IMG/VR virus record: IMGVR_UViG_3300033120_000845
Location: 1 to 64,000 of that record
DNA: 64,000 nucleotides
Source: a virus
Lineage: Duplodnaviria > Caudoviricetes
Strand: one strand, 5' to 3'
The notes beneath the pieces were generated by a model. It saw only the letters and a program-made list of their open reading frames with translations, was not told the origin of the DNA and searched no databases. A program made the translations under genes and the position numbers. Of the stretch, positions 745 to 20,490 are shown piece after piece (the first letter of the stretch is position 1; each line of letters opens with the position of its first letter).

Positions 745-842
745 TTATAACAGCGGTTTTGTGCTATTTGCCCATCAATATTTGTGGTAAACTTGAAACT
801 TTGTGCAAGGGCAAACAGACACAAAGCCGCAAAACGTTATGT
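745..842 (+). mobile_element. attC-like hairpin site S1
   Basis: TTATAAC-a-GCGGTTTTGTG..TTTGCCC-loop-GGGCAAA..CACAAAGCCGC-aaaac-GTTATGT. Confidence 0.85.
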
Positions 843-870
843 GAGATTGCTCCAAATTGATTTCATAAGA

Positions 871-1428
871 CTATTTCGCCATCAAATCGGCTAACTCTTT
901 TTGCTTTCTAATAATTTCTCTTTGTTTAAAATCTTCTTTGTTCAAATCATAATATTTTTTTATAATTGAATCGTAATTATTAAACACTTCTTTTGCGTTT
1001 TCTAATTTAAAGTAAAGGCTTTTGTTTGCGCTATCACAATAATCAGGATTAAACGATTTTAATTCAAAAAAGAATTTTTCAAAGAAAATAGTTGGATAAT
1101 CCCCACCAAAAATATATGCTCCAGTAGGATAACTAAATTTAATAAGTCTTTCTCCTTTTGGTTTTTTACCATTATCCTCCCAGCTTATTGTTGTTCTTTC
1201 GCTATCAATAAAAGTTAGATGTACATTGTTTTTCAATTCTTGATACTGAATGTTATTTATTCTTTTTTCGTCAATTTCAAGTCCGTAAACCTCTTTTAAT
1301 TCCAATCCAAATAAATGGTTATTGGCTTTTAATTCTAAATCTTGAAAATCAAAATTTAATAAATCTTTGTTCTTTTTAGCGATTTTCAAAATGCTGTCAT
1401 AAATCTTTTTTGTTTCTTGTAATTTCAT
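871..1428 (-). CDS. hypothetical protein, cassette 2
   Basis: 185-aa ORF filling the space between S1 and S2. Confidence 0.8.
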   Translation of the reverse strand: MKLQETKKIYDSILKIAKKNKDLLNFDFQDLELKANNHLFGLELKEVYGLEIDEKRINNIQYQELKNNVHLTFIDSERTTISWEDNGKKPKGERLIKFSYPTGAYIFGGDYPTIFFEKFFFELKSFNPDYCDSANKSLYFKLENAKEVFNNYDSIIKKYYDLNKEDFKQREIIRKQKELADLMAK

Positions 1429-1457
1429 AACGTTTAGTTTTAAAAACCCACAACCTC

Positions 1458-1590
1458 ACATAACAAGTGTTTGGCAAAAAAGCGGGTTCGGTTATTAATT
1501 TAAAATCTGTTTTGTGTCTTTATAATTTAGGCTTAATCGAAGTTTCGGGCATTTTTAACCGCTTCTTCGCCAAGCACTAGGACGTTAGCA
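1458..1590 (+). mobile_element. attC-like hairpin site S2
   Basis: ACATAAC-a-AGTGTTTGGC..AAGCGG-loop-CCGCTT..GCCAAGCACT-aggac-GTTAGCA. Confidence 0.85.
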
Positions 1591-1596
1591 GTAACT

Positions 1597-1824
1597 TTAC
1601 CAACTAACTCGAATAAAATCGCCTTGTCTTTGGTCTAATGTTTCTTTAACATCAAATCCCTGTGCTTTTAACCATTTAACAACTAATTCATCGTAAAGGT
1701 CTGAATCAAATGTGGTTTCCCTTTTCCCGTAAGAAGCAACATTTTTTAATCTTCTTTTTATTTCTTCAAGTTTTGGGGAATTTTGACTTTCTGAAATAAT
1801 CTGCAATTCTTTAATAAAATCCAT
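1597..1824 (-). CDS. hypothetical protein, cassette 3
   Basis: 75-aa ORF ending just inside the S2 boundary; C-terminal ..VSW seen in small phage proteins. Confidence 0.75.
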   Translation of the reverse strand: MDFIKELQIISESQNSPKLEEIKRRLKNVASYGKRETTFDSDLYDELVVKWLKAQGFDVKETLDQRQGDFIRVSW

Positions 1825-1859
1825 TTTTCTATGTATGTTTTAAAAATATGTATAGAGAA

Positions 1860-1973
1860 TTACTTTTTTCTATACATTTCGATTAATAAATAAAATATCC
1901 TTCCTAATGCTAAAAGTATAAATGGAATTGTCCAAAAATATACCCAACAATTAATCTCTTCTTGTATCGACAT
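1860..1973 (-). CDS. small hydrophobic peptide (37 aa), cassette 3
   Basis: Manually translated MSIQEEINCWVYFWTIPFILLALGRIFYLLIEMYRKK; ATG lies just inside the cassette end; below ORF-track cutoff. Confidence 0.4.
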   Translation of the reverse strand: MSIQEEINCWVYFWTIPFILLALGRIFYLLIEMYRKK

Positions 1974-1982
1974 AAAAGCTAC

Positions 1983-2077
1983 TGCTAACAAAGGTTTGGC
2001 GCAATAAAGCCACAACCTTCTTATTAATATTCTTGTTTTTCTAAGGCTTTACTTCGCCAAGCCTCTGGACGTTATAA
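1983..2077 (+). mobile_element. attC-like hairpin site S3
   Basis: TGCTAAC-aa-AGGTTTGGCG..TAAAGCC-loop-GGCTTTA..CGCCAAGCCT-ctggac-GTTATAA. Confidence 0.85.
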
Positions 2078-2088
2078 ACAATAAATAA

Positions 2089-2235
2089 CTAATCTTCGTC
2101 TATATCGTTATGAAATAAATATTCGTCTGTTTCGCAATCAGGACAATTTCCATCTATTAAATCTTCACTGTCTAAAAAAGAATTACATTGTCTACAAATA
2201 AATTCTTTATCTTTATAATCTTTACTAAATCCCAT
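2089..2235 (-). CDS. 48-aa zinc-ribbon protein, sole gene of cassette 4
   Basis: Manually translated MGFSKDYKDKEFICRQCNSFLDSEDLIDGNCPDCETDEYLFHNDIDED (CxxC...CPxC); fills the cassette. Confidence 0.7.
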   Translation of the reverse strand: MGFSKDYKDKEFICRQCNSFLDSEDLIDGNCPDCETDEYLFHNDIDED

Positions 2236-2246
2236 TTTTTTACTGT

Positions 2247-2379
2247 TTATAACATCGGTTTTGCTCTATTGCGGTTTAGTGCTTAACCAATCTTCGGTTT
2301 GTGTTTGTTAATTTTGTTTTTTAACTCAATAATTTAGGATTACTTTTCCGCAACAAAGCAAAGCCTCGAAACGTTATAT
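2247..2379 (+). mobile_element. attC-like hairpin site S4
   Basis: TTATAAC-atc-GGTTTTGCT..TTGCGG-loop-CCGCAA..AGCAAAGCC-tcgaaac-GTTATAT. Confidence 0.85.
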
Positions 2380-2389
2380 GAGATTTATT

Positions 2390-2593
2390 CTAAACTTGGG
2401 GCACCCAAACTAAATTAATAAAATCTGTTTCAAACCCTTCGCTTTCAATAATAGAAACAAAATCATCCTTTACAACAACTTTATAAAAATCAAAGTTTTC
2501 ATTTAAGTAATCCTCTAAATCTTTATGATTATTTGCAACTAAAATAATATCGTTACAAAAATTTCTTTCGTATTTAAACAGTAATTTATTCAT
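2390..2593 (-). CDS. hypothetical protein, cassette 5
   Basis: 67-aa ORF filling the space between S4 and S5. Confidence 0.7.
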   Translation of the reverse strand: MNKLLFKYERNFCNDIILVANNHKDLEDYLNENFDFYKVVVKDDFVSIIESEGFETDFINLVWVPQV

Positions 2594-2614
2594 ATTTATA
2601 TAAATTTAAACCTC

Positions 2615-2748
2615 ATATAACAGCAGTTTTGCGCAAGTGGCAGTTTGTTTTATGCCTGTTATATTTCGGCTTGGTTAATAATTATTTTTTATTTGTTATC
2701 ATTGTTTTTAAATCGTGCCACCTTCGCAAAGCTGGCAACTCGTTATCC
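2615..2748 (+). mobile_element. attC-like hairpin site S5 (right end of array 1)
   Basis: ATATAAC-ag-CAGTTTTGCG..GTGGCA-loop-TGCCAC..CGCAAAGCTG-gcaactc-GTTATCC; GTTA overlaps the stop of a 24-aa minus-strand ORF (2743..2817). Confidence 0.85.
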
Positions 2749-2834
2749 TATAAAAGAAAAAGTAATTAGTCCCACTAATATAATAACTCCTGCTAAAAAT
2801 GTTTTTCTACAATACATATTATTTTATTTTTTTA

Positions 2835-5281: not shown

Positions 5282-8200
5282 TCATTTCACTAAATTTTTA
5301 AAATTATTAACTTCTTTCTCAGTTTTTACGGCGAAAGTTTCTCCTTGCATTACACAATCTTTAAATAGTTCTGCTTGTTTTTTGGTGCAAGGGTTTGATA
5401 GTTGAACCCAATATTCTCTAATATCGTTTTCTGTTATCTTTTGTTGTTTGATTGCTATTGCTATGTGTTTCATAATAAATATTGTTCAGCTTCATCAATT
5501 GTGTCGAACCATTTATAATATTCAATCCTTTGTATTTTCTCTGTTTCAAATTCTTTTTCCGCGACTTTTCCGAAAAGATTTTGTACAAATCTATACTTTT
5601 TAACTTTTGTTTTCGGCGTATTGTTTAGGTGTTTCCATACTGTTACTTTTTAACCTTTAATACTTTACCTGTTGGTTCTTTTCCGCAAAAGTCTAAACCT
5701 CTAAATACTCCATCTGTAAATAGCTCAGCTTCTCTTCTTGTTTTAAATGAATATAAACCTTCTAAAAGAAGTGAGTTGTAATGCCAAATTGTTAGTGCGT
5801 ATGTTTTCATAATGTTTTTAACTTTTCTCTAATGTCATATAATTTACATCTTATTTCGTAACTGTCTGTTCCAAAATCTTGAAATAGCTTTTTACCTATA
5901 CTTTCTAATTCTTTAATTATGTCTTCCATAAAATTAATTTATTTGGTAAATAATTTCTTTTCTGTTTTTTGCACTTCTTATTTGGAGGGTCGCGTTTTCT
6001 TTTTCGCATACCTCTTTAAACTCATTCGCCCACTCTTTTAATCTGTCAAGTTTTTCGTATGGTATAAGAATAGCGTACATTAAGTTGGGAGCAAATGTGA
6101 ATTCTCTTAAACTTGATAAGGCTTTAAAAGTATTATTCTCTTTGGTTTTCATGTAAACCATTAGATTACAGTCTGTTGTTTTCATAATATTTCAGTTATT
6201 TCGCCGCCAAAGAAATAAAAAAGACAGCAATTAATATTCACTTCAAATATAATAATAATTTTCTATTCTACAAAATAAAAAGATTACAATTAATTCGGTT
6301 GATAAAAATCTACATCCAATACTTCGCAAAACTCCCAATTACCTTTACTTACAAAATCATAAATATCAGGTTCATTTTCGCTTTCTGAATTGTTTTCTTC
6401 TTGATATTTATCCCATTTCTCACAAACTAAATCGTAATTGTGTTCTTGTGTTAAAACAGTTCCTACTATTTCTTCACTAAATTTATCGTATAATTGTATT
6501 GCTTTCATAAGTTTTAGTTTAAAGGTTTATAATATTCTTTTTCGCCACGAATAAAAACTAAAGAAGGAGCTCCAACTTTATTATTCTCATAAAAGTTAAT
6601 AATTTCATACCCCATATACTTCTTTAAATCTTTTTTAGAATATTCTTTACAATGTTCTAAAGTATCTGTTGGGTTTTCTGTTAACCACTTTTTTATTTCT
6701 GTTTTTATTTCTTCTTTGTCGAATTTTTCAAACCATTTTATAGGTTGGTCTTTTTCTTGACTGAATAATAAGTGTGCCATATTACTAATTTTTATAATCT
6801 AACATTTCCTTTTTAGTAACTCTATCAAAACCGTAAAACTCTAAAAAGTCGTTAATATGTTTTGCTGTTGTATTGCTAAACCAACCGTAAACGCTCATTT
6901 TGTTTGTTTTGTGGTTATAACTTGCTACTCTTTTACCATAGCTTATTAAGTCGCTATAATGGTCGCCGTCTGAATTTACATATTCGTTTACGTGGTTATT
7001 CTTTTTGTTATTGATATAAAATGTTTTCATAATCTAATTAAATTTAATAGGTTGACTTTCTACTTTTTATTAACTTTCTATACTCGTTTTTCATAATTTC
7101 GCGGGTAAAAGAATTAAAAAAAAGATTTACTATAAACAAAAGATACAATCTCTAACAAAGAAACAGTAACAGTTTCCTGATAAACATATTCCTCTGAATA
7201 ATCAAAGAATATAATAACATCCTTACCCATTTCTGTAAAATCATGAACAGATTGTTTAATGTTAAGATGCTCTTTACAATAAGATTCTAATAGTTGTCTT
7301 TTCATAACATGAATATTAAACCGATAACAAATAATTGATAAATTAAAGCCGCTCTAAGTACATTATGATTAATACTTTCAAAGTCTTCTACTAAATGTGG
7401 GGAAAATATACCAACAAAAGGGGTGAATAAAATTAAATATTTCATAGCTTTAATTTTGTTTTTGGGGGTAACTTACCGCCCTTACATTAATAATCCTTTA
7501 AAACGTTTGTAAATGGTATTCTCGTCTGTTTTTACAATCTTTTCTATTAGTGGAATAAACTCGCCGCAAAAAAGGAATAAAACAGAAAAGAAATACTTTA
7601 TAAAGATAATAAATAATTCCAACACTACCTACAATAAGATAGTAATTTATTTAAAAAACCCCTAACTTATATTCAATATTTTGTCTACTTTGTAATTCTG
7701 ATAAGTGTAATTCAACTTCTACTAATTCAGAATTAACATAAGTAACACTCACAACTTGTAATTTATCAAAAGGTGCTTCATAACCTTGTTCAATTTTTAC
7801 ATATTCCCCTACTCTTGGAATAACTTTAAAATTAGAAGGGAATTTATTTTTAAACTTGTCTATATTAGTTTTAAATATAATTTTCATAATACTTTATTTT
7901 AATTGGTTAAAACTCGCCGCAAAAAAGAATTAAACAGAAGATAAACTAAACACAAACAGTTAACAACCCATAACTATTATAATAACAACTAATAGGAGGA
8001 TAACTATTTAAACTATTGATATCAGATACAACCTTCTGAATATTTATATTATAACAAGATACATTACTCTTTATACGAACTTCTGTAATAGCTAACCTCT
8101 TTTCTTCAAATAAGGATTTAATAATAAAATCTTTGTACTACTTTTTATCGTTATTCAATAAATATTTACTGTTTCTCGTGTTACTGTTAAATGCAATTGT

Positions 8201-11200
8201 TATCTTAACGTTTATTTCTTTATTATCCACTTCTTACCACTTTTTACCACGATTTACCCTAAAAGTACTTTGAAATGCAAAGTGGATTTTTGGTGGGTGG
8301 TGGACTACCGACCTTATTAAACCTCATGTAACCCCTTATAAATCAAGACATTAGGGATAATATCTTTAAATCTTCTTTCATCTCCAAGAGCATTTGCATA
8401 GCGTCTTTATAGTCTTCGTTAGATATAGCTTCTGTTATTATATCTATATCGTTTATTAGTTTGTTTAGCATAATCTTTTTGTTTTTAGTTTTCTTTTGCG
8501 CGGAATTCCTTAAATATGGGATTCTCTCTAAGACTTATATAGAGCATTTTTCCCAAGATTAAGGATTTCTTTTTAATCTGCCAAACATTCTTTCAATTTC
8601 ACCTCTTCCAAAACAGCTAAGAATAAGTTTCTTTTATCTTTTGCTGTTGGCTCTTCCCAATTGTCCCACAATAAACTGTCGTTTGTGTGTTCTCTTAATA
8701 CTTCAATCTCTCCATTTATTTCTATTTCGGCGCATTTATAATAAGAGCCTCTTCCGTTACCTCTTTCCATAAAAGCATTGTGACAGATGATTTTTCCCTC
8801 TATACTGTTATTCTTTAATAACTGAGCTACTTTCTTTATAAAGGCTTTACTACCTCTTTCGTTGTAGTTGTCGTATATGTAGTTTGTTACTGAAAGTTTT
8901 TCTGTTGTCTTCATAATCTTTTTGTTTTAAGTTTTTTTTCGCGCCCAAACCTGAATCGAACAAGGTCGTACCTATTATTTCAGTACTCTACCATTTAAGG
9001 GCTTTTTAAATTATTGTTTTTGATATTTTTCTATTTCTGCGCCGTTTCCTATCTCAGCCGTTAACTTGTGAGCCTCAATTTTAGCGTACAAATTACCATG
9101 TACAGAATGGAATTCACCGTGGTAACGTTCAGGGATAAATAGACTGCCTTGTGTGTTTTCTGTTGTTGGTGTACTGCATCCTATCAAACTGAATAAGAGC
9201 GCAAATAGTATTAATAGTTTTTTCATAATTGTACTTCATTAAAGATTATACGTTCTACTTTTTGGAGTTCTTCTCCTTTTAAATTTTCTTTTGTCGCGCG
9301 GTATTCAATTTCTGCTTGTGTGTCTTCTTTTCCGCGCCAATAGCCTAAAAAGAAACTGCTCACTACTAACACAAGTAATAAGCCTATTAAAGCGATTTCT
9401 TTCATACCTAATTGAATTTTTTATTATACTCTTTACTTACTTGTTCATCTGTTAGGCTTGTAAGATAGTTAAATCTTTCTAAACTTCTTTTTTCGCTTAG
9501 TAGTATAGCTGTTAATTGCTCTGTTCTGTTCATAATTTCTATTTTTTAATTTTCTTTTTCCGGCGAAATTTATAGCAATACCACAAGACGATTGATGTCT
9601 TTTCTACGCAATACATAAAAAGTCTTGAAACCTCTCTCAACTTTTACGTAACTGCATTTTTCTTTTTGCATTGCTGCCCGCATTCCTGATACGCTCCCCG
9701 CATTTTCATACACTACTAAAGTAAGCCTTTCACTTTCTGTTAGTGGTTTGTCGTCTATAAATATAGTTTCCATGATTTTATTGATTGGTGGTTAAAACTC
9801 TTTCGTAGGCTTTTGTCATTTTGTCGTTGTCGGCATAATGTACATTTTTAATTTTTAACATCCATTCGTTAAAACCGTTTACTTTGGTTTTATTTACCGT
9901 TGATAATATTTTGATTGTCTTCATCTTTTTTGCGCGATTTTATAAATTATTTTAATTTTATAACGTTACATTATTTGCTAATTTTTCTGCAATTACTTCG
10001 CTTTTTAGTAAATAATCTACATAATCGACAAAGGCACAACGAATATCCGTACAATACTGATTTTGTGTATAGGTCTTTCTGTAATGCTCTTTAAATTGTG
10101 GATGATTTTCCCAAAAAGATGCGCGTATTTCTTTAAATGTTTTCATAATATTAAAGGTTTTCTTTTAATGTAAAAAATGCGTTTGATAAGTTATTCCAAT
10201 ACTCAGATAAAAATACGTCTTCCTGCTCTTCTGTCTCTATTTTATAACCCGCGTTTTTTGCATTTTCCAATATTTCAAAGTTATAAAAAGGAACAGTTAA
10301 AACAGAAGGAAGACCACGCAACCACTCAGAAAATAAAAATCTTTCGCTCTGGCGTTTGTTGTTTTCGTGTACGTATTCACGCTTGAAAATATTGTACAAA
10401 GTTTTAATTTTGTCGTACAAATAACCATCGTTGTTGATTCCGTAACCGTCAAAATTAATATTGTCTAAGATGGTTTTTTCAAAGAAAGTATAAACAGTTG
10501 TTTTCATAATGATATTTTTTAAATGATTAATTAATGTAAATTTAATGAATTTTTTTTTGATTGTGCAAATAAACTTCGTATTTATTTTAAAGTTTTAAAT
10601 TTGTGCCGTTGTTGTTATCGCTACAAATAAAGTCTTTACTTTCAACGGCTCAGATTTTTATTAGCTTCTTAGTGCCTGACCTGCTCCGTTTACTAATTGT
10701 TTAAAAATGGTTTTGATTGCTTGCATAATGTTAGTTTTTAGTGTTTAACTGTATTTTCTTTTTTTGGCGATACATTTAAAGAAACTAACTCTTTTTTATC
10801 TTCATCATAGCACGAAAACTGATATAATTTTTCTGCAAAGTCATTATCTTTTAAGAAAGAATTATTTCTTTTATTTCGTCTTTTTGCCGTTTCCACCATT
10901 TCACACAACCTTTCATAATTGTTGTAAAATGTATTGTAACCGAATTCTTTTAATATGTCAATAACTACGTTATTTAACGACTCGAATTTATGTCTATCTT
11001 GGAAAGTTAATTGTTTCATAATTTCGCGGATTAAAAAGTTAAAAATTAAAGTTTTCAAATAAAACGGCTATAAATAAAGCCACTAAAAAAGCGATAAACA
11101 AATTTCTATTAAAGTTTTTCATAATTAAAAATTTGTTAGTTGTTCCCCACAATCTGACAATCTATAAAAATCTATTGAATAGCTATTTTGTTGCATACAA

Positions 11201-14188: not shown

Positions 14189-14508
14189 AATTTTTCTTTC
14201 ACTTCCTGTCTGTTTTCTTCAAACTCTTCTTTTTATTTAATTTTTTTAATTTCGCGCGAAAAAGAGTCTTTAACAAACAATCTTCTTTCTTCTTGGACAG
14301 CTAATTCTTCTTTCTGTTTCTTTAAGTTGTTTATTTTCTCCGTTTAATTCTTTTTCTTTATTATTTGCGCAATTATGCACTGAGAAAAGTAGTAAAATCA
14401 CTACTACTATGTAAATCCAATTTTTTTAATATTTTCTTTCATTATTTTATTTTAAAATTTCGAGAAATAAGTCACTTAATCCTTTTATTTATAAGGCTTG
14501 ACACTCTG

Positions 14509-14545
14509 TTGCGTATATATATATATAATAATTACCTGCAAGTGC
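14509..14545 (+). mobile_element. left junction of cassette 6 (half-site resembling one arm of terminal site SD)
   Basis: TTGCGTATAT(AT)n AATA-ATTACCTGCAAGTGC; the last 15 nt are complementary (11/15) to GCACCAACAGGTAAC at 15520-15534. Confidence 0.6.
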
Positions 14546-14561
14546 TACATTGGTGCTTTGA

Positions 14562-15467
14562 TTAAACATTTTCATTAGAAAAATTATTAAAAATTTCCCC
14601 ACCTTTTAAAAAAGAAAAAATATGAGCAATCACATCAACAGTCCACCCGTTTCCTATTGCTTTATATCTTTGCGTGTCGCTGAAACCAATTGTGTAATCA
14701 ATTGGTAGAGTTTGAAGTATTTCACATTCCTTTGGTGTTAATCTTCTTAATATACCGTTGGATTCTACAATCTGCCCTTCTCTACTATTACTATTATTTT
14801 TGTAATATGTTGCAAACAAACATTTAGATTTATTAGCAACTAAATCAAACCCTTGTTTTTCCCTTACTCGTTCCACAGCACGTTCTGTTAAATAATACTT
14901 TTCATCAACATCGGTTTCAATTATATTTCTAAAATCCAAACCTAAATCAATGGGTTGTTTTACATTCGGTATATTAGTCCAATACAATCTATTACGTCTT
15001 TGATGGCTTAATAATGCTGAATTTATCTTTATAGGTTTTACCCCCAATGCTTCTGAGATTAAATCCTCCCATTCTTTTTTCATTACAACATTTTCAAGTA
15101 AAAAGTATTTTGGTTTAGTTTCATTTAAAACTCTTACATATTCCCAAAATAAACCACTCTTACCTTCAAATCCAACCTTATCACCCATTTCTTCACGATA
15201 TAAACCCATTGTACTAAATGATTGACAAGGTGAGCCACCAATAAGTAAATCAATTTTTGGTAATTCACTTGCTTTTACGTCCACTACACTTCCTATATGT
15301 TTTGTATTTGGGTAATTCCTTTTACACATCTGAATTGCATAACCATCAATTTCAGAAGCGAAATAGTTTTCAATACCAATATCTGCTCGTTCAAGTGCAA
15401 TTTGTCCGCAACTAATACCATCAAATAATGATAATACGTTTATTTTTTCTTTTTTGCCTACGCTCAT
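14562..15467 (-). CDS. dcm: DNA (cytosine-5) methyltransferase, cassette 6
   Basis: Motif I LSLFDGISCG, motif IV GGSPCQ, motif VI ENV, motif VIII QRRNRLYW, motif X IGNGWTV. Confidence 0.92.
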   Translation of the reverse strand: MSVGKKEKINVLSLFDGISCGQIALERADIGIENYFASEIDGYAIQMCKRNYPNTKHIGSVVDVKASELPKIDLLIGGSPCQSFSTMGLYREEMGDKVGFEGKSGLFWEYVRVLNETKPKYFLLENVVMKKEWEDLISEALGVKPIKINSALLSHQRRNRLYWTNIPNVKQPIDLGLDFRNIIETDVDEKYYLTERAVERVREKQGFDLVANKSKCLFATYYKNNSNSREGQIVESNGILRRLTPKECEILQTLPIDYTIGFSDTQRYKAIGNGWTVDVIAHIFSFLKGGEIFNNFSNENV

Positions 15468-15527
15468 TTTTAATAATTTTTTGTTTAGTATTTCAATTTA
15501 AGTTTTCCGTTAATTAACCGCACCAAC

Positions 15528-15657
15528 AGGTAACACGTGCTATAAGCAATAGCGGGTTCTGTGCTATCCGAAAGTTTCTGCTGTTTATTATCGTTTGTCA
15601 TAATTTGAAAGTTCTTTGTTATTAATCCGCTACTGCTCATAGCACCATACGTTATCT
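15528..15657 (+). mobile_element. attC-like hairpin site S6
   Basis: AGGTAAC-ac-GTGCTATAAGCAATAGCGG-loop-CCGCTACTGCTCATAGCAC-catac-GTTATCT; GTTA overlaps the stop of ORF 15652..15846. Confidence 0.85.
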
Positions 15658-15846
15658 TACACAGCTACAATTACATTTAGGATGGTTATACATTCTAAGA
15701 GAGGGTTTTGATTTTTCTCTCAGTTCTTTATTCTCTGTTTCTAATTCTTTTACGCGCGAATTTTGTTTTTCTAACTCATATAGTGAATAGATGAATAGTG
15801 AAAAACCTAATACTGCTAAAATTACTAATGGTTTATTTGTGTTCAT
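15652..15846 (-). CDS. small membrane-anchored coiled-coil protein
   Basis: N-terminal TM helix followed by a coiled coil. Confidence 0.6.
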   Translation of the reverse strand: MNTNKPLVILAVLGFSLFIYSLYELEKQNSRVKELETENKELREKSKPSLRMYNHPKCNCSCVR

Positions 15847-17028: not shown

Positions 17029-17316
17029 TTATAAATGTGTTTTAAATGTTGTATTAAACTGTTTATTATAATTTTCTATTTGAAATTTTATTTCCGCGCA
17101 AGTTTCAAAATTAGACCACAGCTCAAAGAAACTAAGGAGAATTAAAAGATTGTTTATATCATATAACCTAAGAATATTAATATAGTCATCTCTGTCAGAA
17201 TATCGGATAATTTCATTGAATTCTATATCTTCGGGAAATACTCCATCAGGGATAAAAGCTATATGTAATTTCCAAAACTCTTTTAATTCTTCAACGGTAA
17301 GTTTCTTTGTAATCAT
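17029..17316 (-). CDS. hypothetical protein
   Basis: 95-aa ORF. Confidence 0.6.
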   Translation of the reverse strand: MITKKLTVEELKEFWKLHIAFIPDGVFPEDIEFNEIIRYSDRDDYINILRLYDINNLLILLSFFELWSNFETCAEIKFQIENYNKQFNTTFKTHL

Positions 17317-17777: not shown

Positions 17778-17911
17778 CGCTAACGTTTTGTGGCTTTATG
17801 AAGTTGCGTGCCTCCAAAACAGCCGTTAATAAATTTTTTCTTTTCTTCCCGCACGCACGGAAAATTCCAAACACACCCTAAACAAGCAATTTCATAAAAC
17901 CTCTGTTAGCA
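17778..17911 (-). mobile_element. attC-like hairpin site SA (inverted relative to S0-S6)
   Basis: CGCTAAC-gttttgt-GGCTTTATGAAGTTGC-loop-GCAATTTCATAAAACC-tct-GTTAGCA; its reverse complement has the S1-S5 architecture. Confidence 0.85.
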
Positions 17912-18487: not shown

Positions 18488-18620
18488 TGCTAACGTCCCG
18501 CCAGCTTTGTGAAGGTGCAATTTTCACTCACTAACGATGGATTAATAATTAATTTTTATTCTTGCACCAAAACTTTAAATTAAACCTTTAGTTGCACTTT
18601 CACAAAACTGCCTGTTGTGC
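18488..18620 (-). mobile_element. attC-like hairpin site SB
   Basis: TGCTAAC-gtcccgc-CAGCTTTGTGAAGGTGCAA-loop-TTGCACTTTCACAAAACTG-cct-GTTGTGC. Confidence 0.85.
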
Positions 18621-19598: not shown

Positions 19599-19732
19599 GC
19601 ACAACGTCCATAGGCTTTGTGTCAGGTGGCGCGAACCAACACAGACCTCTCTGATTAATAATTATTTTTTAATTGCGCCAAAACTTTCCAAATATTCCTT
19701 TAACCGCCACTTGCACAAAACCTTTGTTGTAC
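19599..19732 (-). mobile_element. attC-like hairpin site SC
   Basis: GCACAAC-gtccat-AGGCTTTGTGTCAGGTGGCG-loop-CGCCACTTGCACAAAACCT-tt-GTTGTAC. Confidence 0.85.
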
Positions 19733-20393: not shown

Positions 20394-20490
20394 GTACAAC
20401 TTGTAAATATACGCATTGCGCTTTTTAAATATATCTCGGTTTTATTGAATATATTTACTTTTGTGCATTGCGTATATTTTTTTGTTAATA
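20394..20490. mobile_element. terminal hairpin site SD (distinct class; candidate attI-like primary site)
   Basis: GTACAAC-ttgt-AAATATACGCATTGCGC-loop-GTGCATTGCGTATATTT-tttt-GTTAATA; symmetric spacers; 7 nt from the groES stop. Confidence 0.7.

Follow-up and report, generated by a model that had tools for sequence, protein, structure and literature searches.

Recombination at folded single-stranded sites has its textbook example in integrons, and a widespread phage system appears to share this site logic while employing a plain Xer-like enzyme and inverted cargo. The element considered here is a solo cassette of that system, comprising a DNA methyltransferase (methylase) gene and a hairpin site, S6, at 14532–15651 of the window, a term used herein for the whole stretch analysed, i.e. 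the first 64 kb (positions 1 to 64,000) of the 132,413-bp viral record IMGVR_UViG_3300033120_000845 (31 % GC). As in integrons, the sites are folded imperfect palindromes with AAC/GTT cores in which structure, but not sequence, is kept; there is one site per cassette, the array starts at a hairpin-less site beside a tyrosine-recombinase gene, and the crossover would fall between G and TT. Unlike integrons, the phage possesses a Xer-like recombinase of 275 aa without the insertion specific to integron integrases (IntI), and its gene is co-directional with, and downstream of, the cargo rather than divergent from it. The cargo open reading frame (ORF) also occupies the other strand, with the site 5′ of the gene and often supplying its start codon, whilst cassette-specific terminal repeats lengthen the R box to 9–15 nt, and hairpins and cargo re-assort. 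IntI is known to insert solo cassettes at non-att genomic sites (attG) with a GWT consensus (bioRxiv 10.1101/2022.09.11.507474), whereas the phage target reads A^TT and not G^WT.

Sites of attC type have been described in phages as well, with Qi et al. (2023; PMC9892861) reporting integrase-less attC clusters (CALINs, clusters of attC sites lacking integrases) in virulent phages, some of which carry methylases, and some of which are recombined by IntI1. The clusters include one in a Polaribacter (Bacteroidota) phage, and methyltransferase cargo is read there as anti-restriction; that study reports, however, neither a phage-encoded non-IntI recombinase nor inverted cargo polarity nor an analysis of solo-cassette junctions. 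With regard to Xer/dif systems, the likeness lies in the recombinase, whose sequence matches XerA and XerC-like proteins best. The phage cassette ends, which finish TAA and start TTA, are also similar to the inner ends of dif arms. Unlike dif, there is no 28-bp dif-type site in the phage, the arms are parted by a hairpin of ~115 nt rather than by a 6–8 bp central region, and arm sequences vary between cassettes. Promoter-early stem–loops (PeSLs), reportedly proposed by Arbiol and colleagues in 2010 to mediate modular gene shuffling in T4-type phages, are intergenic stem–loops that border swappable small genes in large lytic phages and are thought to act via homologous recombination; we know of no dedicated recombinase, AAC/GTT cores or cassette-specific terminal repeats in these elements. 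No paper was found in the literature on a phage system that combines a Xer-like recombinase, inverted cargo and S6-type sites, and to the systems above the present locus adds base-level junctions, cargo replacement at a single locus, and evidence that hairpin and cargo are separable.

The reading preferred here, to which we assign a probability of about 0.7, is that a phage-borne, integron-like system of site-specific recombination is at work, with the methylase as the cargo of one of its gene cassettes. The features concerned are as follows, with the minus strand being the gene strand, and other sequences referred to by number (L003 to L021) where they must be told apart.

14532–15651, minus strand: the whole cassette as drawn in the initial annotation, hairpin site plus methylase block, 1120 bp; both ends are homology breakpoints.
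15529–15656, minus strand: attC-like hairpin site S6, from covariance model R1 (87 bits, minus strand only), fold and covariation.
15651–15654: outer core, GTTA on the plus strand and TAAC on the gene strand; the TAA within it is the stop codon of ORF 15652–15846, and flank homology with L017 extends across the core and 2 nt more.
14532–15534, minus strand: core-to-core cargo block of 1003 nt (terminal repeat, 5′ leader, methylase, terminal repeat); homology ends at both cores.
15468–15519, minus strand: methylase 5′ leader, conserved along with the gene in L011, L008 and L005.
15520–15534, no strand assigned: terminal inverted repeat of the cargo block on its gene-5′ side, holding the inner core; from complementarity and cross-contig comparison.
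14532–14546, no strand assigned: terminal inverted repeat at the gene-3′ end, which ends TAA followed by T where the core usually has C; 11/15 complementary to 15520–15534.
14501–14531, no strand assigned: AT-rich junction flank without a hairpin, possibly an attI-like docking sequence, with a homologous flank in L017 and L018; its low complexity makes it at most suggestive.
15652–15846, minus strand: 64-aa resident gene of the flank, of a small membrane/coiled-coil type; the core contains its stop, and homologues are found at the same locus in L017, L018 and L019.

The cargo gene itself is ORF 14562–15467 of the minus strand; its product, a complete C5 cytosine DNA methyltransferase of the Dcm type (301 aa), matches PF00145 over its full length (E-value 2.7 × 10−42; profile positions 2–320 of 324) and displays, on inspection of the sequence, the catalytic PCQ motif at ~15230–15245. 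It has at least 8000 homologues at E ≤ 1 × 10−20, with identity of up to 92 %, and relatives of 80–92 % protein identity are present in many metagenome contigs. Genes of the same strand flank it on both sides.

The architecture of S6 is well defined. Its arms, of 19–22 bp, lie at 15537–15559 and 15623–15645 and enclose a loop of ~65–73 nt, with TAAC (15531–15534) two bases ahead of the first arm and GTTA (15651–15654) five bases past the second when the plus strand is read. On the gene strand the order is TAACG, a spacer of 4–5 nt (which reaches 7 nt in other members of the family), a stem of ~20 bp, the loop, the return stem, a spacer of 0–2 nt and TGTTA. Model R1 was built from 34 sites of the source genome and related contigs, S6 being among the training set. 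Throughout this alignment AACG is invariant at one end and TGTT at the other, and the consensus fold contains 21 pairs, with compensatory changes in 16 of them; five R-box pairs are invariant, one being a G.T pair that is present on the gene strand only. These sites share with attC an imperfect inverted repeat in which an inner stem is set off by an unpaired spacer from outer AAC/GTT boxes, the fold being kept and the sequence variable. The bases around the invariant AAC/GTT read YTAAC-G and T-GTTA-K/Y, which agrees only partly with the published consensus RYYYAAC/GTTRRRY. Family members measure ~50–155 nt, and typically ~125 nt.

A stem scan for the layout AAC, short spacer, stem, loop, stem, longer spacer, GTT recovered it at ~17 places in the genome, the scan giving 20 hits in the 132 kb against 2–4 in Markov shuffles. 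Model R1 finds nine sites in the window at 60–107 bits, two of them outside the training set, whereas the opposite strands of the array 2 sites score merely 11.5–22 bits. The S6 family is real and strand-specific. Its minus-strand members lie at 746–841, 1459–1589, 1984–2076, 2248–2378, 2616–2747 and 15529–15656 (S6), and those of the plus strand at 17779–17910, 18489–18619 and 19600–19731. Apart from S6 they form two arrays, both from the stem scan and model R1:

746–2747, minus strand: array 1, five sites, with a further, partial one where the contig starts.
17779–19731, plus strand: array 2, three sites in inverted orientation.

The family was overlooked by a generic repeat finder because the arm sequences differ, a sliding-window folding scan was too noisy for use, and an Rfam search of the window returned zero family matches. 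Behind the last cassette of the inverted array 2, at 20395–20486, is a short, near-perfect hairpin with arms of 15–18 bp, a 41-nt loop and 4/4-nt spacers, which scores poorly with the model (11.5 bits) and has a similar counterpart at L019:170–257; it is either a different type of element or a degenerate site. Polaribacter Freya phages display length variation upstream of a distant integrase homologue, yet no sites of the S6 type, and candidate sites that a lenient scan suggested in Polaribacter phages Leef_1 and P12002L were not confirmed by the covariance model, so no claim is made for them.

A quite different picture is presented by the gene-3′ end of the cassette. With filters off, model R1 gave no hit at E ≤ 10 within 14300–14560, and the fold of 14380–14560 was no better than those of shuffled sequences (z = +0.5), from which it follows that the methylase has a full site on one side only, upstream, as the initial annotation had maintained; the degenerate full hairpin left of 14531 that might have contradicted this was seen by neither approach. 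The complementarity described there was likewise borne out, as the 15 bases from 14531 match the reverse complement of 15520–15534 at 11 positions, with A instead of G at the first base and three mismatches at the centre (the chance of an 11/15 match in the 162-nt spacer is ~0.006–0.009). This is one instance of a general rule, for more than 30 cassettes of the source genome and other contigs start with GTTR and a further ~6–12 bases, and end with the reverse complement of these plus YAAC, giving terminal inverted repeats of ~9–15 nt that the methylase block possesses also. Its gene-3′ end sequence recurs in L011, where it is followed by C and a hairpin. The AT-rich flank at 14501–14531 is similar to the junctions without a hairpin that adjoin the recombinase in G000, L020 and L021, all of low complexity; an attI-like motif common to such junctions was considered, but it consists of the same low-complexity AT-rich sequence and was not relied on. 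Array ends that lack a hairpin do have flanks that are conserved. A motif of ~27 nt ahead of the recombinase start (L003:4299–4348) recurs at array 4 (genome 131300–131360), where there is no recombinase, and the first 16 nt past TAAC are alike at array 4 and at the end of the L005 array (L005:4919–4960).

The positions of the junctions can be read from the cargo side in other contigs. L011 is 89.8 % identical in DNA to the window over exactly positions 1–1003 of the core-to-core block (15534 to 14532), beyond which it has a different hairpin upstream and, where the window has the AT-rich flank, a complete TAAC core and a further hairpin downstream. Blocks that are 87 % (L008/L009) and 78 % (L005–L007) identical sit between yet other hairpins, with L005 being without one downstream of the methylase block. 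A 26.9-kb contig from a bioreactor run (X3) matches 14532–14654, its homology ending at 14532, and enters another S6-type site past the 5′ end of the methylase gene. From the flank side, the 51.9-kb sister-phage contig L017 shares the sequence of the window through the outer TAAC core and two further bases, then diverges, and homology resumes at the TAA^T junction (14524 leftward in the window). Between these breakpoints it has no methylase but two hairpins, the first followed by a 58-aa ORF and the second by one of 76 aa. At the same locus L018 has one hairpin, on the gene-5′ side only, and a 65-aa ORF, and the more distant L019 has neither core nor hairpin. Homology breakpoints in these alignments thereby support both junctions, 14531/14532 and 15651/15652 (the latter within ~3 nt), and with them the mobile cassette that had been proposed, as seen from L011, L008, L005 and X3 for the cargo and from L017 for the flank.

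It is the core-to-core block, hairpin-less and with inverted ends, that is conserved as a unit across contigs, and this is what one would expect if the block were a small transposon-like or IS200/IS605-like single-strand element lying beside a pre-existing hairpin outside the mobile unit. Excision of the block alone would, judging by the sequence, leave a plausible complete site, which accords with such an element. There is, however, no target duplication and no Y1 or HUH transposase in the genome (PF01797 gave no match in the 132 kb at E ≤ 1), the same architecture is found in more than 30 unrelated cargo blocks, none of which contains a transposase, and the ends of arrays show one hairpin per cassette. 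We regard this explanation as highly improbable.

The prediction of an empty site joining 14531 to 15652 did not materialize. The exact junction gave no hit in viral contigs, its degenerate version none in metagenome contigs, and the end of the flank gene, when used as a query for an empty allele, nothing in either; nor did contigs of four runs contain a joint skipping 14532–15651, although these were contigs only, and are uninformative either way. A sister phage without the methylase, which the initial annotation had suggested looking for, does exist in L017 and shares the flanks, but it carries other cargo and not an empty site. On sequence comparison, then, the difference between the sister phages at this locus is cargo replacement rather than an empty site. 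Unitigs of the source run break at 15489, 15560 and 15652, with a depth of 57.5 on the left against 35.5 on the right, which no more than hints at a heterogeneous population at this point. When the 64-aa flank protein was looked up exactly, the source contig alone was recovered.

The insertion point had been linked to stop codons, and the observations themselves stand: TTA at 15652–15654 is the TAA stop of ORF 15652–15846 (minus strand), and TTA at 2743–2745 that of the 24-codon ORF 2743–2817 (minus strand). That integration favours TAA stops is, by contrast, a preference that does not emerge from the data, as TAA belongs to the nearly invariant TAAC core. Tabulation of the 34 sites places the core TAA at the end of the longest upstream ORF in 11, and at ~10 further sites the stop of the upstream ORF falls 12 nt sooner, where the terminal repeat begins. 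The junction behind the 64-aa gene is common to L017 and L018, and therefore points to one inherited site and not to repeated targeting.

In every case examined (the window, L018, L005, array 3, array 4, L020 and L021) the hairpin-less end is on the 3′ side of the last cargo gene, and the 5′ boundary of the cargo always bears a hairpin. Accordingly there is one hairpin per cassette, on the 5′ side of the gene, which is the opposite of a classical integron cassette. The polarity that had been inferred from the window thus holds as architecture, but the accompanying notion that a hairpin travels with its gene does not, for four homologous methylase blocks (78–90 % DNA identity) carry four unrelated upstream hairpins. 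Conversely, three homologous pairs of hairpins, of 96.6 % (arrays 1/4), 89.6 % (L005/L008) and 83 % (within array 3) identity, have unrelated cassettes on both sides. Hairpin and cargo consequently assort independently, such that exchange is possible at either core, or hairpins are replaced by another route.

The two ends of the record (61–548 of the window, and genome 131926–132413, in L004) share a 489-nt cassette at 93 % identity, with homology beginning exactly at the GTT core, behind different hairpins; the hairpin at 131842–131937 is 96 % identical to 1986–2081. This shared cassette and hairpin may be the reason that the record was not closed into a circle.

Many hairpin loops (e.g. that of L003:4651–4778) hold an ATG whose ORF continues via the 3′ arm and core into the cassette, in which case the site provides the start and first residues of the cargo protein. 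An ATG is also present in the S6 loop (15560–15623), where it opens only a 51-aa ORF (15485–15640) that stops ahead of the methylase's own start.

Independent assortment, the ATG-bearing loops with ORFs crossing the 3′ arm and core, and a fold on the transcribed strand in which a G.U-compatible pair is invariant would all suit hairpins that are regulatory or RNA modules (a terminator, a processing site or a portable start region), shuffled by homologous or microhomology recombination at these conserved linkers, much as has been proposed for PeSLs, and with no dedicated recombination at all. Such modules give no role to the cassette-specific terminal inverted repeats of 9–15 nt, however, and the breakpoints fall exactly at the 4-nt cores rather than inside the longer conserved arms. 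The ends of arrays are, moreover, strictly asymmetric, and the linkage of arrays to a single tyrosine-recombinase family is tight and fixed in orientation. An explanation of this kind therefore seems unlikely.

The recombinase concerned is the only PF00589 tyrosine recombinase of the genome, encoded at 101470–102297 (minus strand; 275 aa) and bearing a PF13495 domain at the N-terminus. Among named proteins it matches archaeal XerA and XerC/D best, and amongst NCBIfam models the top hit is XerA_Arch (206.8 against a cutoff of 220); models of integron integrases stay under their cutoffs, with TIGR02249 reaching 165 bits against a cutoff of 265. When compared to VchIntIA (2a3v), the Vibrio integron integrase of solved structure, it aligns in two pieces, residues 13–175 to 12–179 of the chain and 196–272 to 242–319, leaving ~40 residues of VchIntIA without a counterpart, so that the domain specific to IntI is not present. 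The corresponding region of integron integrases holds the I2 helix, which is reported to be the innovation that made single-strand recombination possible (PMC7790495).

Linkage of the recombinase to arrays of sites is established by position. Array 3 consists of six sites directly upstream of the gene and on the same strand, with a hairpin-less core 50 nt before the start codon; here, and in L020 and L021, the last cassette ends TAAC, followed by 50–60 nt of AT-rich sequence and then the recombinase start codon. The array hence begins, in the manner of attI beside an integrase gene, without a hairpin, and has one site per cassette. Sixteen related viral contigs encode recombinases of 60–86 % identity, and in 12 of the 13 that have at least 1 kb of upstream DNA, sites are found upstream of the recombinase in the same orientation, with as many as 12 in the 7 kb upstream; over the 13 contigs, ~40 sites lie upstream against two weak ones downstream. 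The family as a whole numbers 2,175 proteins at E ≤ 1 × 10−30, nearly all of 275–277 aa, and a search of 185,579 representative bacterial genomes turned up no close relative of the recombinase.

These data also bear on the idea that the cassettes are ordinary attC cassettes from a host integron (CALIN), moved by the host IntI, with the phage recombinase being an unrelated enzyme for lysogeny or dimer resolution. There is precedent in the published attC clusters and methylase cassettes of virulent phages, some of which IntI1 recombines (PMC9892861), and the AAC/GTT cores and the fold of the present sites do resemble attC. Against this, 12 of 13 contigs keep recombinase and array adjacent, the cargo is encoded on the strand opposite to that of classical cassettes, and the recombinase is without a close relative in the bacterial genomes searched. 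Furthermore, model R1 has no hit at E ≤ 0.01 on Polaribacter phage P12002L, which bears a published attC cluster, and the two may be different site families. A host integron as the source is, on balance, improbable.

Among the cargo of cassettes next to the recombinase are genes for a Mom-family protein and an RNA ligase, as well as for an N6/N4 methylase that is in two pieces, and a gene resembling PAPS reductase lies behind the methylase cassette in L008; as judged from sequence, this neighbouring cargo fits a counter-restriction role. The two-piece methylase of the recombinase-proximal array (L003:7694–8715; genome 105693–106714) consists of a C-terminal ORF at 7694–8086 and an N-terminal ORF at 8149–8715. 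In the Logan contig L010 (1483–3069), a Dcm gene of 92 % identity has one half of an N6/N4 methylase gene on either side of it, and a site of the family overlaps the Dcm start. As the HPTQKPV motif of the split methylase resumes directly after it, the Dcm gene looks like a cassette inserted within another methylase gene.

Returning to the integron-like system that we favour, a mechanism can be proposed for the locus. The structure of the sites, the positions of the junctions, the replacement of cargo at this locus and the linkage of arrays to the recombinase are shown, whereas the chemistry, the strand used, the circular intermediate and the enzyme are all inferred. Each site comprises a 5-bp R-box-like duplex (TAACG/TGTTA) that an asymmetric unpaired spacer connects to the ~20-bp stem. 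A circular cassette of S6 and the methylase block would recombine at TAA^C of the gene strand, which is G^TT of the plus strand, with a hairpin-less, AT-rich site just past the stop of the 64-aa gene, and the outcome would be a hairpin at the gene-5′ junction and a hybrid, hairpin-less A^TT junction at 14531/14532. The insert is co-oriented with the surrounding operon and the methylase retains its own conserved leader; it would shield phage DNA against host restriction. The likely catalyst is the phage's own 275-aa Xer-like tyrosine recombinase, an assignment made because arrays sit directly upstream of this recombinase family in related phages. Independent re-assortment of hairpins and cargo blocks over evolutionary time means that exchange can take place at either core.

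Several points weigh against this scheme. The recombinase is without the ~40-residue insertion of integron integrases, and its gene lies ~86 kb from the solo methylase cassette. The upstream hairpin is not conserved among homologous methylase cassettes, and a one-sided integron reaction therefore cannot be the sole route of exchange. In addition, the gene strand is transcribed, meaning that the conserved fold could also function as RNA. Neither an empty allele, nor a circular junction, nor a read joint skipping the cassette was observed, and since every near relative has cargo at this locus, what took place here may have been the replacement of cargo at a resident site and not an insertion into an empty one.

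A further reading would make the sites giant dif-like sites with a hairpin in place of the central region, at which a Xer enzyme lacking I2 exchanges at either core and hairpin and cargo modules shuffle independently. We offer this only tentatively. Hairpin modules would then often carry a start codon and the first 15–20 codons, and perhaps expression signals, and cargo modules would be mainly anti-restriction genes. Such an arrangement, if true, would amount to a two-layer combinatorial cassette system for phage counter-defence, and to an independent route to folded-DNA recombination without the special domain of the integron integrase.

For the integron-like system preferred above, confirmation of the link to the enzyme would imply either that the chemistry of integrons is achievable differently, or that the sites work in a different form, for instance as a cruciform. 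The system is, besides, an example of a way in which large lytic phages may exchange single anti-restriction genes (Dcm, N6/N4 methylases, Mom) as units, and the base-level junctions of the solo cassette are directly usable in the design of excision and integration assays.

Beyond the cassette on its gene-3′ side, the next resident gene is as follows.

14254–14443, minus strand: beginning of this gene, which is paralogous to the 64-aa gene and homologous to a 238-aa gene of L017; frameshifted in the record at an A-run.

Here a run of seven A residues (eight in L017) ends the frame after 11 codons, and the match to the L017 protein goes on in two other frames; the break could be a sequencing error, a pseudogene or phase variation. 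A neighbouring gene of 163 aa has no close relative among viral contigs. In L017, GroEL and GroES are encoded just upstream of the region (L017:2070–3810), and the gene adjacent to them is 98 % identical to 17029–17316 of the window, which makes the source a large phage that encodes a chaperonin.

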